Origin: an uncultured Schleiferiaceae bacterium
Lineage (GTDB): Bacteria; Bacteroidota; Bacteroidia; Flavobacteriales; Schleiferiaceae
Direction of reading: 5' to 3'
Length of the DNA: 64,000 nucleotides
Assembly: GCA_965658445.1 (NCBI GenBank)
Contig: CBFHSF010000001.1
Location: 5,793-69,792 of the forward strand
The notes below the pieces were generated by a model. It was not told where the DNA came from, ran no database searches, and worked only from the letters and a program-made list of their open reading frames with translations. The position numbers were made by a program, and so were the translations under genes. This document shows, in pieces, positions 2,406 to 53,702 of the stretch; position 1 is the first letter of the stretch, and each line of letters opens with the position of its first letter.

Positions 2406-3305
2406 TCACTCTTGGGGTAAAGCTTCCTTTTTTGCCTTGTTTTTTTTGATTCGTTTGATTACTCCGTTGGAAACCACTGCAATAAGAATGGTTGCACCTC
2501 CTAAATAAAAAGCAGGTGTCATTTTTTCTGCATCGCCAAAGAGCACAAAGGCAAGGAGAATTCCATAAACGGGTTCTAGGTTAATGGTCAGTAATATGGT
2601 AAAGGGACTCAAGTCTTTCATAACTCGCACGCTTTCCAAGAAAGGATAGGCCGTGGCAACGGAGCCCAAAATCAACAAATATCCCCAATCGTACATAGAA
2701 ACTTGAGTGAAGAAATCGAGGGTCAAAGGTTGGGTGAACAAAATGAAAATCCCCACAAAGAGCCATCCACCTATCATTTCCCAAGCAGTGATCGACGTGC
2801 TTGTCAATCCTCTTTTAACGTGAATGCCATTTATTACGGAAAACAGTGCCGATAAAAAGGCCGAGACCAATGCCGTTAGGATCCCTGCAAAATATTGCGT
2901 TTCTACCGCGAAAATGGTTGAAATCCCCACAATGACCAGAATGCCCATGACAATTTCAAAAATGTCAATTTTTCTCTTGTAAAAGATGGGTTCCAGTAGA
3001 GAACCAAAAAAGCTTCCCGAACTCAAACAGGCCAGCGTAACGCTGATGTTACTGATTTTTATGGCGTGGAAAAAGGTAATCCAATGCAGTGCTATGAGAA
3101 GCCCCGTTCCCAACAATGCCCAGCGGGCTTTCGCCGAAACTTTAAAGGGAATCTTGGCAATCCATAAATACCCCAAGAAAAAGGCAATGGCAATTCCCAT
3201 TCGGTACCAAACCAAAGAGACGGCTTCCAAGCTGATCAAATGACCCAGTATGGCGGTAAACCCCCATATGAAAACTATGAAGTGTAACTTGATTTGCGAG
3301 TTCAT
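2406..3305 (-). CDS. EamA/DMT family transporter
   Basis: 299-aa polytopic membrane protein with about 10 hydrophobic helices in two halves, as in EamA repeats. Its start overlaps the upstream stop (TAATG). Confidence 0.75.
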   Translation of the reverse strand: MNSQIKLHFIVFIWGFTAILGHLISLEAVSLVWYRMGIAIAFFLGYLWIAKIPFKVSAKARWALLGTGLLIALHWITFFHAIKISNISVTLACLSSGSFFGSLLEPIFYKRKIDIFEIVMGILVIVGISTIFAVETQYFAGILTALVSAFLSALFSVINGIHVKRGLTSTSITAWEMIGGWLFVGIFILFTQPLTLDFFTQVSMYDWGYLLILGSVATAYPFLESVRVMKDLSPFTILLTINLEPVYGILLAFVLFGDAEKMTPAFYLGGATILIAVVSNGVIKRIKKNKAKKEALPQE

Positions 3306-5615: not shown

Positions 5616-5623
5616 TAATTTTG
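5616..5623 (+). promoter_or_regulatory. -7 box TAATTTTG upstream of serC
   Basis: Matches TAnnTTTG, 27 nt before ATG 5650. Confidence 0.5.
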
Positions 5624-23138: not shown

Positions 23139-23171
23139 AAGCCCCGAAGCACCGCTTCGGGGCTTTTTTTT
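23139..23171 (+). terminator. rho-independent terminator after pruA
   Basis: AAGCCCCGAAG ... CTTCGGGGCTT stem followed by a T-run. Confidence 0.88.
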
Positions 23172-23185
23172 GGTTGTCGAAAGTT

Positions 23186-23235
23186 CGTTTTTTGTTTTCG
23201 TTTGGTGTTTCCGTTTGGTGTTTCCGTTTGGTTCC
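23186..23235. repeat. 13-nt tandem repeat, about 4 copies
   Basis: CGTTTTTTGTTTT, CGTTTGGTGTTTC, CGTTTGGTGTTTC, then CGTTTGGTTCC. Ends 7 nt from the stop of the minus-strand gene. Confidence 0.85.
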
Positions 23236-52043: not shown

Positions 52044-52109
52044 CCCTTAAATTAGTGAGGCTTCTCACAGGGATTAATTACTAGTTTTGAATAATCAAGG
52101 AATAAGCAC

Positions 52110-52406
52110 ATGCCAAAAGAGTCCATTCAAGAGGAGTTTGAGCGATTTATAGAAATTGGACGTGTCATGCCAAAGCAGACGCCGGACAAAATGCTAATCG
52201 CTTATGGCTTTTACAAGCAGGCCCTAGTAGGGGACTGTGTAGAAGACCGTCCCAAAGAAAACTCTACGGTGGTAGAAACCTTTATGCACGATTCCTGGAA
52301 GCGCCTAAAGGGTATGGCAAAAGAAGAGGCAATGGGCAAGTACATAGCCTACATCAAAGAGTTATTGGTCGAAGAAAAGTTGACCGTAGCGAGTTTTTCC
52401 AAGTAA
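52110..52406 (+). CDS. acyl-CoA-binding protein (ACBP)
   Basis: Aligns by eye along its length with canonical ACBP: PDKMLIAYGFYKQALVGDC, DSWKRLKG and KEEAMGKYIAYIKEL. Confidence 0.88.
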   Translation: MPKESIQEEFERFIEIGRVMPKQTPDKMLIAYGFYKQALVGDCVEDRPKENSTVVETFMHDSWKRLKGMAKEEAMGKYIAYIKELLVEEKLTVASFSK

Positions 52407-52470
52407 AGAATTTATTGGTGTTGAGTAGTTTGCGGTGAACTGAGTGCGGGTTTTTAGAAAACATATTTTC

Positions 52471-52540
52471 CTAGTTCCTAGTTCCTAGTTCCTAGTTCCC
52501 AGTCCCTAGTTCCCAGTCCCTAGCCCTTAGTCCCTACCTT
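52471..52540. repeat. heptanucleotide tandem array (10 heptads, CTAGTTC family)
   Basis: CTAGTTC x4, CCAGTCC, CTAGTTC, CCAGTCC, CTAGCCC, TTAGTCC, CTACCTT. Confidence 0.95.
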
Positions 52541-52723
52541 CAGGGGCCACACCCCTGTCCCCGGTCTCAAGCTACAAGTTATTCCGAAAGTAACCCGTCA
52601 AGTAAACGCTTTCAGACGACACAATTCGCCTTCGGAAAAATCAACAAAGCCGAAAAGATAGATTCGGCTACAATCGATTGTTTTACGACTAATTAAATTT
52701 CGGTTTGTAACTTCTCTTGGGGA

Positions 52724-52740
52724 GGGCGTGATACACGCCC
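52724..52740. repeat. unit 1 hairpin GGGCGTG-ATA-CACGCCC
   Basis: Perfect 7-bp stem with a 3-nt loop. Confidence 0.95.
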
Positions 52741-52828
52741 CGACTGAGGCGTTTTGAATCGGTTTCAACCGAATACAATTGATTAAATGACGCTTGGTGG
52801 TTTCGATCTGTGTAACTTTCCATGGGGA

Positions 52829-52845
52829 GGGAATCGTGGATTCCC
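52829..52845. repeat. unit 2 hairpin GGGAATC-GTG-GATTCCC
   Basis: Perfect 7-bp stem with a 3-nt loop. Confidence 0.95.
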
Positions 52846-52934
52846 CGGCCTAAGCTCATTCAGCCGAGTACTACCGAACGTAACCGATTCTTATAGTCTC
52901 AGATTTGGAATAATTCCGAAATTCACTCAGGGGA

Positions 52935-52949
52935 GGGGTCGTAGACCCC
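52935..52949. repeat. unit 3 hairpin GGGGTC-GTA-GACCCC
   Basis: Perfect 6-bp stem with a 3-nt loop. Confidence 0.95.
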
Positions 52950-52963
52950 CTCAATAATCCAAG

Positions 52964-53009
52964 TTATCTGTTACCTGTTATCTGTTGCCTGTTGCTCGTT
53001 GCCTGTTTC
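52964..53009. repeat. heptanucleotide tandem array (TTATCTG/TTGCCTG family, 6-7 heptads)
   Basis: TTATCTG TTACCTG TTATCTG TTGCCTG TTGCTCG TTGCCTG TTTCC, abutting the cmk stop codon (53010-53012). Confidence 0.92.
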
Positions 53010-53702
53010 CTATTCCCCAATCTCCTCCATCGCCCAATCCACAGCAATGACAAACTGTTCTTCGCGGCTTAGGTGTGAGTTGTCCAGAACGCGAGCATCA
53101 TCTACTTGAATCAACGGGCTCTCTTCACGAGTCATATCAATATGATCTCTCTCCGTCAGGTTTTGTGCAACCGCTTCTAAAGTGACATCGTCACCCTTTG
53201 CCTTGAGCTCATCGAATCGCCTTTGCGCTCTGATTGCGGGATCTGCGGTCATAAAAATTTTCAATTCGGCATCGGGGAATACCACGGAGCCAATGTCCCT
53301 ACCGTCCATTACCACTTCCTTTTCTCTGCCCATTTCCTGTTGCAAGGCCACCATTTTTCTTCTGACCTCTGGGATGGCTGCAACCGAACTTACTTTTGAG
53401 GAGACTTCCAGGGTTCTAATGGTATCCTCGACGTTTTTACCGTTTAGGAAAGCGGAGTTTTTGTCCTCCTCGGGCATATACTCAAATGAAATGGTAATCT
53501 CAGAGAGTGCCTCAATGAGTTTCTCAACACGTATGCCCTCTGTGCCAATGAAATTGTTTTCTATAGCGTATAGGGCCACACAACGGTACATTGCGCCGGT
53601 ATCTATATATCGATAGGAAAGTTTCTTTGCGAGGTTTTTAGCTAGCGTACTCTTCCCCGTAGAAGAGTAACCGTCTATGGCAATGGTGATTTTGTTTGGC
53701 AT
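53010..53702 (-). CDS. cmk: cytidylate kinase
   Basis: ITIAIDGYSSTGKSTLAKNLA P-loop, IDTGAMYR, and MDGRDIGSVVFPDA. Confidence 0.95.
   Translation of the reverse strand: MPNKITIAIDGYSSTGKSTLAKNLAKKLSYRYIDTGAMYRCVALYAIENNFIGTEGIRVEKLIEALSEITISFEYMPEEDKNSAFLNGKNVEDTIRTLEVSSKVSSVAAIPEVRRKMVALQQEMGREKEVVMDGRDIGSVVFPDAELKIFMTADPAIRAQRRFDELKAKGDDVTLEAVAQNLTERDHIDMTREESPLIQVDDARVLDNSHLSREEQFVIAVDWAMEEIGE

Follow-up and report, generated by a model that had tools for sequence, protein, structure and literature searches.

Tandem hairpin units with covarying stems form a conserved non-coding array between ACBP and cmk in uncultured Schleiferiaceae

Introduction

The repetitive extragenic palindromes (REP) and bacterial interspersed mosaic elements (BIME) of enterobacteria and pseudomonads, as well as the BOX elements of Streptococcus pneumoniae, are built from variable numbers of tandem modules. 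Their imperfect, GC-rich palindromes carry a short conserved 5' motif and cluster in non-coding regions at the 3' ends of genes, frequently where two genes converge. REP hairpins protect the 3' ends of upstream mRNA, and the BIMEs of Escherichia coli bind gyrase and IHF. The element analyzed here shares this general layout. It lies in a stretch of 64,000 nucleotides from an uncultured Schleiferiaceae bacterium (contig CBFHSF010000001.1; the whole stretch is referred to below as the window), in which the 603-nt, non-coding spacer between the convergent genes for an acyl-CoA-binding protein (ACBP) and cytidylate kinase (cmk) harbors an array of hairpin-bearing units. These units are sibling copies of one ancestral unit of ~105 bp, and they replace the simple bidirectional ACBP-cmk terminator of related genomes. 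Purifying selection maintains the pairing of their hairpins and also preserves unit-specific blocks of sequence.

Long intergenic assemblages of heptamer repeats have been described in Gramella, Aequorivita, and Elizabethkingia and are absent from close relatives (MacGregor, 2015; PMC4679880). As in these assemblages and in the cyanobacterial short tandemly repeated repetitive (STRR) heptamers, several different heptamer arrays are combined at the ACBP-cmk locus in a long intergenic region that is lacking in close relatives with the same gene neighborhood, and contigs end inside the repeats (PMC4679880). The published description covers heptamers only, however, and conserved hairpin units of 105 nt between such arrays fall outside it. 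Diverged, structured copies of ~100 nt that lie head to tail in one intergenic region and are conserved between species also occur among sibling small RNAs (LhrC1-5 of Listeria, Qrr1-5 of Vibrio, and PrrF1/2 of Pseudomonas), but each of those genes has a promoter and an intrinsic terminator, neither of which was found for the units of the array. In flavobacterial dCas12f-sigmaE systems, stem-loop single guide RNAs of 85–105 nt, sometimes in tandem, are encoded directly downstream of dcas12f-rpoE, and tandem copies are nearly identical (Hoffmann et al., 2026; PMC13472631). The array resembles these guide arrays in its tandem stem-loop units of this length and its occurrence in Flavobacteriia, but it adjoins ACBP and cmk rather than dcas12f-rpoE and its units are ~55% identical. 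Like the array, the Flavo-1 RNA motif is a hairpin-containing, non-coding element of Flavobacteria; it did not match the spacer that holds the array.

In contrast to REP/BIME and BOX elements, which are dispersed in tens to hundreds of copies, the array had no second copy in the ~235 kb examined. REPs in BIMEs alternate in orientation, whereas cores 1–3 of the array share one orientation at a 105-nt period. Furthermore, a REP has a 5' GTAG and an associated RAYT (REP-associated tyrosine transposase) gene, whereas the 5' motif of the array is GGGG-A/T-GGG and no RAYT was seen among the 20 open reading frames (ORFs) of the window that were scanned. The array belongs to no named family tested; the general kinds that it recalls, namely intergenic hairpin-repeat clusters, sibling RNAs, and heptamer assemblages, are known. 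Unusually, however, it unites a single locus with covariation and conservation over the long term and with heptamer flanks that change fast. Marine Schleiferiaceae are uncultured and have tightly packed genomes, and a non-coding region of 600–800 bp that is conserved past synonymous saturation in such a compact genome is very likely functional. Should the region act as RNA, a new structured class would be added to the poorly known RNA biology of this phylum; should it act as DNA, it would be a hairpin array maintained by selection at a single locus, which is rare. It also links the unexplained flavobacterial heptamer assemblages to a conserved structured core and provides a concrete locus for testing their origin and function.

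Results and Discussion

Architecture of the array

Three cores on the plus strand, each composed of GGGGAGGG, a stem of 6–7 bp, a 3-nt loop, and CCCC, start at positions 52719, 52824, and 52930 and are thus spaced 105 and 106 nt apart. They form hairpin 1 (GGGCGTG-ATA-CACGCCC, 52724–52740), hairpin 2 (GGGAATC-GTG-GATTCCC, 52829–52845), and hairpin 3 (GGGGTC-GTA-GACCCC, 52935–52949). Along with hairpin 1, unit 1 (52640–52745) contains a 12-nt perfect palindrome, ACAATCGATTGT (52670–52681), the motif GTAACTTCTCTT, and the G-tract GGGGA. Unit 2 (52746–52850) combines the invariant AATTGATTAAATGACG (52777–52792) with TTTCGATCTGTGTAACTTTCCAT, GGGGA, and hairpin 2, and unit 3 (52851–52956) combines the conserved elements (C/G)AGTACTAC(C/G)GAA-N-GTAACC and TTCCGAAATT with GGGGA and hairpin 3. 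A weaker hairpin 0 (CAGGGG-CCACA-CCCCTG, 52541–52557; core AGGGG-CCACA-CCCCT, 52542–52556) is followed by TCCCCGG and by a block at 52558–52639 that includes the invariant 20-mer GTCAAGTAAACGCTTTCAGA (52597–52616). The sequence CCCCGGTCTCAAGCT starts at 52559 in this block, and CCCCGGCCTAAGCT starts at 52843 at the end of hairpin 2. The units share a general plan: a short, A/T-rich GWAAYTT motif comes first, then a G-tract (GGGG-A/T-GGG), and last a GC-rich hairpin whose loop measures 3 nt. On alignment, the four units showed a mean column identity of 55%, which indicates descent from one ancestral unit of ~105 nt.

Hairpins of this quality are not expected by chance in the region. Perfect hairpins with a stem of at least 6 bp and a loop of 3–5 nt occurred as four distinct structures (six counts), against a mean of 0.41 in 1000 dinucleotide shuffles, none of which reached the observed number. 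The sequence GGGGAGGG occurred four times in the window, three of them in the array, with 2.0 occurrences expected.

The array is flanked by two different heptamer arrays. On the left, 3' of the ACBP stop codon, ~10 copies of TTCCTAG, TCCCAGT, and CCCTAGT occupy 52468–52540 of the plus strand (52468–52536 according to Tandem Repeats Finder). On the right, GCAACAG, GTAACAG, and ATAACAG heptamers at 52963–53011, read on the minus strand, start directly after the cmk stop codon (GTTACCT in Tandem Repeats Finder). An earlier note, made from the letters of the window, had pointed out the cores and hairpins, the degenerate fourth core, and the flank motifs, all of which were recovered at the same positions, and had mentioned the two heptamer arrays. 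It had also described a spacer devoid of ORFs of 60 codons or more, in agreement with the longest start-to-stop ORF of 56 amino acids found here. Its account of the unit flanks needs a correction: ATTAAAT is indeed present at 52692 and 52782 (plus strand), but in unit 2 it is separated by 13 nt from the TTCGATCTG that had been said to follow it.

Covariation of the hairpin stems

Orthologous loci (L068–L077, L079–L088, and L090) were obtained by exact-protein look-ups, and comparisons were based on four full orthologous spacers and a few partial ones. Twelve distinct core copies, consisting of paralogues and of orthologues from five lineages, were aligned for analysis of covariation. Across the 7-bp core helix of these copies, 89% of the cells were in standard pairs, and five of the seven pairs had changed on both sides. 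The covariation score of 0.561 was reached by none of 500 shuffles (0.211 ± 0.041) and exceeded the scores of slid partners (at most 0.305). The covariation that the earlier note had read from the compensated stems of the window was thus supported in an enlarged alignment, relative to both shuffled and slid controls.

Changes in individual hairpins were of the same kind. The fifth stem pair of hairpin 3 is T-A in the window, T-G in L068 and L086, and C-G in L069 and L071, and its loop (GTA, GCA, or GAA) always conforms to C-GNA-G. The closing pair of hairpin 2 has changed on both sides in L076, from C-G to A-T. Hairpin 0 reads CTGGGG/CCCCAG in L068, in which an A-T pair has been replaced on both sides by T-A, and is degenerate in L076. 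The stem of hairpin 1 is unchanged in four lineages, with the loops ATA, GTA, and TCA. The window, L086, and L076 all retain the palindrome ACAATCGATTGT of unit 1. The corresponding site in unit 2 of L076 reads TTAAT-TG-ATTAA, both arms having changed symmetrically.

Sequence conservation between lineages

Four-fold degenerate sites were used as a neutral baseline; their identity with the window was ~76% in L068, ~43% in L088, and ~40% (saturated) in L076. From hairpin 0 to hairpin 3, the array core of the window was 66.5% identical to that of L076 over 418 aligned columns (P = 7e-28 against the 40% baseline), while shuffled sequences aligned likewise reached 41.6 ± 2.8%. The conserved positions were clustered in blocks, which included uninterrupted matches of 21, 16, and 16 nt (permutation p = 0.0004). 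In the comparison with L068, 91 of 98 positions were identical in hairpin 0 and the block that follows it (P = 1e-5 against 76% at four-fold sites), and 201 of 238 were identical from hairpin 1 to hairpin 3, also above the 76% baseline.

The 20-mer GTCAAGTAAACGCTTTCAGA was identical in the window, L086, L068, L076, and L088. Other blocks that were invariant or nearly so in all lineages are GGGGAGGGCGTG...CACGCCCC, AATTGATTAAATGACG, TTTCGATCT..GTAACTT, GGGAAT.GTG.ATTCCC, AGTACTAC.GAA.GTAACC, and TTCCGAAATT. Hairpins 1–3 occur in the same order in the four full orthologous spacers, and orthologous units are 66–95% alike, as compared to ~55% for paralogous units. The proposal, made in the earlier note, of selection on structure rather than on sequence therefore applies in part: the pairing is selected, but unit-specific blocks of 16–21 nt are likewise invariant where synonymous sites are saturated.

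Origin of the spacer and turnover of its edges

ACBP (plus strand, 52110–52406, stop codon 52404–52406) and cmk (minus strand, stop codon 53010–53012) were assigned by Pfam matches (PF00887 and PF02224, respectively) on orthologues with 95–98% identity. The nearest cmk protein, 95% identical, derives from a Schleiferiaceae metagenome-assembled genome (MAG); a cmk scan of a collection with one genome per species yielded nothing above 61% identity, and exact look-ups of the window cmk protein and of protein P0128 found neither on record. Gene order was identical across all relatives compared, irrespective of spacer length. The spacer measures 603 nt in the window, 685 nt in L086, 779 nt in L068, and 796 nt in L076 and L077, the latter a Tara Oceans scaffold with a spacer identical to that of L076. 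It is reduced to 82 nt in L072–L075 and L079–L082 and to 8 nt in L083–L085. The 82-nt spacer is a canonical bidirectional terminator, with a hairpin and T-tracts on both strands. These results showed that the array is a lineage-specific, non-coding insertion at the place of an ancestral bidirectional terminator. Protein identities indicated a roughly three-way split between the window clade, L076, and L079, according to which the array was either gained before L076 parted from the window clade or lost or transferred once.

Six independent short-read contigs (L069, L070, L071, L087, L088, and L090) end inside the spacer, which is therefore partial in these loci; L069 and L070, from different runs, both stop 52 nt past the cmk stop codon, just beyond hairpin 3. 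These contig ends are consistent with repeats or strain heterogeneity breaking the assemblies. ACBP of the window and of L076 share 95% amino acid identity, compared to 79% for cdsA, 85% for the LUD-domain protein, and 88% for psd. The protein is rare, with just three protein clusters at E <= 1e-20 in a collection of 5.8 billion proteins. ACBP may co-evolve or be co-transferred with the array.

The edges of the spacer turn over quickly, as shown by its heptamer arrays, extra units, and small hairpin modules. The left heptamer array comprises ~3 copies in L086, is represented by CCCAAGT-type units in L068 and L090, and is missing from L076. At the position of the right array, L068, L069–L071, and L086 carry unrelated GTGAGTA/GTGAGTG heptamers and L076 carries none, so that L076 retains the units without any heptamer array. 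Only the flanks of the spacer, with two arrays in a spacer that measures 8–82 nt in outgroups, correspond to a heptamer assemblage; the hairpin units do not. L068 and L086 have an extra unit 4. A 29-nt stretch, consisting of the end of an AGTGAGC heptamer run and the hairpin CCCGATGGATATCGGG, is located at the ACBP end in L068 (11440–11412, spacer positions 33–61) and, inverted, at the cmk end in L086 (580–552, spacer positions 574–602), with 96.6% identity. Further AGTGAGC-type heptamers flank it at both sites, and its orientation relative to transcription of the adjacent gene is the same. In hairpin 2 of L086 (spacer 355–402, locus ~799–752), the stem is of the hairpin 1 type (GGGCGTG-GTA-CACGCCC) and the 5' flank differs, with the remainder of the unit resembling unit 2; units or lineages seem to have exchanged sequence here by gene conversion or recombination. 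As a whole, L086 resembles the window on its left side and L068 on its right. In L088, whose cmk is 85% identical to that of the window, a small hairpin module, CGCCGACAATGGTCGGGACAAGCTA, is situated at 2999–3023 between the CCCC that follows hairpin 0 and the GTCTCAAGCT block, and a related sequence, CCCGACTGTTGTC, is present in L086.

Turnover of this kind raises the question of whether the array is a largely neutral or selfish minisatellite that arose by tandem duplication and slippage, as in BOX, MIRU, and the flavobacterial heptamer assemblages, with hairpins restored by template switching or gene conversion. The variable number of units (three plus hairpin 0 in the window), the heptamer arrays that vary in sequence and copy number at one site, the inverted 29-nt stretch, the stem of hairpin 2 in L086, which points to gene conversion, and the breakage of short-read contigs within the array would all fit such an origin, as would the reported absence of long heptamer assemblages from close relatives in Flavobacteriia (PMC4679880). 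However, the order of the central units and the invariant blocks of 16–21 nt have been retained over a divergence that saturates synonymous sites, and the greater likeness of orthologous than of paralogous units argues against ongoing homogenization of whole units. Moreover, the wobble intermediate in hairpin 3 favors stepwise compensation over templated repair in one step. A neutral minisatellite is accordingly considered quite unlikely.

Coding potential, promoters, and terminators

Substitutions in the array showed no codon periodicity. Mismatches by position modulo 3 numbered 50/39/51 (p = 0.39), as compared to 55/22/151 (p = 2e-26) in cdsA, in line with the earlier view of the repeats as non-coding. 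A small ORF of 56 amino acids (52787–52957) is open for ~34 codons in L068 and L076, but its substitutions lack a codon pattern and it was rejected as a gene.

Promoters were sought with the Bacteroidetes sigma-A consensus, i.e., a -7 box TAnnTTTG with a -33 TTG ~19–21 nt upstream. ACBP has a canonical -7 box at 52082–52089. Exact boxes lie ~20–65 nt 5' of many start codons (e.g., at 5616, 7889, 18689, 21414, 52082, and 58669), which indicates that this lineage uses the canonical Bacteroidetes -7 element with short 5' untranslated regions (UTRs). Between 52090 and 53390, no exact TAnnTTTG box was found. Boxes with one mismatch in the spacer lacked a properly spaced -33 TTG and were not conserved, save for a weak TAACTTTC-type motif.

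These observations bear on the suggestion of the earlier note that the units are tandem paralogous small-RNA genes. By analogy with LhrC1-5, Qrr, and PrrF, each unit would be transcribed independently from its G-tract, with GWAAYTT as a weak -7 box. A TAAnTT-like motif is present 2–3 nt 5' of every GGGG in the 12 copies and fits TAnnTTTG at six to seven of eight positions; the paralogous layout is tandem, and the unit-specific conserved stretches could be seed regions. However, neither a full TAnnTTTG box nor a normally spaced -33 TTG was present in any unit, and yet the box does occur at real genes of the window; no unit ends in a hairpin followed by a U-tract, and no Rfam family matched. Independent small-RNA genes are thus very unlikely, and the suggestion was not upheld in a genome that places TAnnTTTG boxes upstream of its genes.

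T-tracts were absent after hairpins 0–3 on either strand. The sole terminator-like site of the spacer (52669–52648, minus strand) is not conserved, and terminator-like hairpins elsewhere in the window have longer stems, loops of 4–6 nt, and A/T flanks, from which the array hairpins differ. The earlier conclusion that the hairpins are not classical terminators was thereby confirmed. At 23139–23232 of the window, a long terminator-like hairpin, AAGCCCCGAAGCACCGCTTCGGGGCTT, is situated between convergent genes and followed by three copies of a 13-nt repeat, TGTTTCCGTTTGG (23193–23232).

Possible roles at the RNA or DNA level

The spacer has no promoter of its own, which points to transcription by read-through. 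The reading favored here, tentatively and as a possibility rather than a probability, is that of a selected non-coding element that is expressed by read-through and whose hairpins act as RNA 3'-end barriers. The array would probably be transcribed from ACBP and from the operon that ends in cmk. In the resulting transcripts, stable hairpins would serve as 3'-end barriers or as terminator-like insulators between convergent transcripts, the invariant single-stranded blocks may be contacted by a protein or by a partner RNA, and these blocks could be released as 3'-UTR-derived RNAs. The predicted fold of hairpin 0 as RNA has an energy of -10.2 kcal/mol. Wobble pairs are rare in the best-supported stems, and each of them is a plus-strand G-U pair; they occur in hairpin 3 (L068 and L086), in the outer pair of hairpin 0 (L088), and in a mini-hairpin of L068 (CGGTT/AATCG).

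Several points weigh against this reading. Transcription of the array, its strand, and its RNA ends are predictions. Hairpins that lack a U-tract terminate transcription poorly on their own, and a role as barrier leaves the invariant blocks between the hairpins unexplained. Folds of single units were unremarkable (z-scores of -0.15 to -2.3), no helix beyond the core hairpins was supported, and over the 12 hairpin copies three G-U cells stood against two A-C cells, which does not separate the strands. Most of the body of unit 1 (its 5' part) has been replaced by other sequence in L068, so that not every block is essential, and recombination between lineages, as seen in the mosaic makeup of L086, can inflate the apparent conservation. 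Finally, the palindrome ACAATCGATTGT, the C-G-closed G-N-A triloops, and the 105-bp period are equally compatible with a role as DNA.

One large structured RNA was also considered but found no support, since the long-range helices proposed by RNAalifold on both strands are mostly broken in L076.

If the array acted at the DNA level, it could offer phased binding sites, or cruciforms that can be extruded, to a protein such as a nucleoid, topoisomerase, or recombination protein; the hairpins would then be DNA palindromes and the invariant blocks operators. Perfect or near-perfect palindromes within conserved blocks (ACAATCGATTGT in the window, L086, and L076; TTAAT-TG-ATTAA in unit 2 of L076) are in keeping with this proposal, as are the constant 3-nt loops. 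Hairpin 3 always conforms to C-GNA-G, a very stable DNA mini-hairpin motif. The period of 105–106 bp is a further point in its favor, 105 bp being about ten helical turns, and so are the non-significant strand asymmetry and the lack of promoters and conserved canonical terminators in the spacer. On the other hand, no candidate binding protein is encoded nearby, the T-G mismatch that persists in hairpin 3 of two lineages (L068 and L086) is more tolerable in RNA than in a cruciform, and one site per ~235 kb examined would be unusual for architectural DNA sites. A DNA-level role appears unlikely on balance.

In a further proposal, the array encodes a new family of sibling structured RNAs specific to a clade of marine Schleiferiaceae. 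Family members would be regulators derived from 3' UTRs or guide-like molecules for a protein whose gene lies elsewhere, with the invariant unit-specific stretches of 16–21 nt as sites of target recognition. This proposal is judged rather unlikely.

Searches for known families and further copies

The whole window gave no gathering-score match to Rfam 15, which includes Flavo-1, 6S-Flavo, IMES, GOLLD, and the self-cleaving ribozymes. In a permissive search, three matches at chance level were found in the spacer (E = 2.7–7.7) and one in the orthologous L086/L077 loci (E = 0.33). Flavo-1, which the earlier note had recommended to check, gave no match at gathering score; it was equally absent from the spacer when E values up to 10 were allowed and from two orthologous loci when values up to 1 were allowed. 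No tRNA or tmRNA was detected in the window.

A covariance model of the unit (R1) scored 45.5, 44.7, and 39.5 bits for units 1, 2, and 3, respectively, and no other site in the 64 kb of the window exceeded 12.8 bits; in ~171 kb of related loci it found orthologous sites only. Similarly, when the window and 75 loci were searched with the spacer by BLASTN, orthologous spacers alone were returned, without a second copy in ~235 kb. The dispersed, REP/BIME-like family that the earlier note had considered thus found no support from either method in the window and ~171 kb of relatives. No transposase family, RAYT included, was represented among the 20 window ORFs scanned against Pfam or among the genes called in the L068 flanks. 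Collections of phages, plasmids, and viruses contained no real match, two plasmid matches spanning the heptamer array alone. A metagenome scan with the invariant 20-mer produced one match (L089, 3239–3258), in an ORF of an unrelated AT-rich contig, which was judged to be due to chance; the collection scanned lacks these lineages, as shown by its failure to return L086.

Similarity to dCas12f-sigmaE guides raised the possibility of an orphan array whose guide-like RNAs serve an RNA-guided protein with a gene at another locus. The two share the bacterial class and the unit length, the array units are arranged in tandem and rich in stem-loops, and their unit-specific stretches of 16–21 nt are conserved between orthologues as guides would be. 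However, no Cas12f/TnpB-like or ECF sigma factor ORF was encountered among the window ORFs scanned or listed or among the genes called in the L068 flanks. The Pfam scan of 20 window ORFs detected neither family, and three long ORFs without a Pfam match have no adjacent sigma-factor gene. In addition, described tandem guides are nearly identical, in contrast to the ~55% identity of the array units, and no match of at least 14 nt to the array was present elsewhere in the window. By this evidence, an orphan guide array is highly improbable.

Three other candidates were rejected. A CRISPR array, which would show near-identical direct repeats of 23–50 nt and unique spacers of about that length, was dismissed because the "repeats" differ in their stems and the ~82-nt intervals are homologous to each other rather than unique spacers. 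The E. coli consensus of the FtsK-orienting (KOPS) motif is GGGNAGGG, which GGGGAGGG fits, but GGGGAGGG is not over-represented outside the array and orthologues have GGGGTGGGG and AGGTAGGG instead. A replication terminus or origin was discarded because gene orientation and GC skew do not switch at the spacer, and no DnaA-box-like sequence was seen on reading.

Heptamer arrays at other loci

Arrays with a period of 7 were the commonest short tandem repeats, with 41 occurrences, in the 1.27 Mb examined, most of which came from Bacteroidota loci. In two Bacteroidaceae MAGs (L033, 2877–2957; L034, 8375–8409), AT-rich heptamer arrays begin within ~10 nt of the cmk stop codon, and in L047 (10746–10778) a heptamer array is located ~80 nt downstream of it. 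At these three loci the next gene is co-directional, and the heptamers are unrelated to those of the window.

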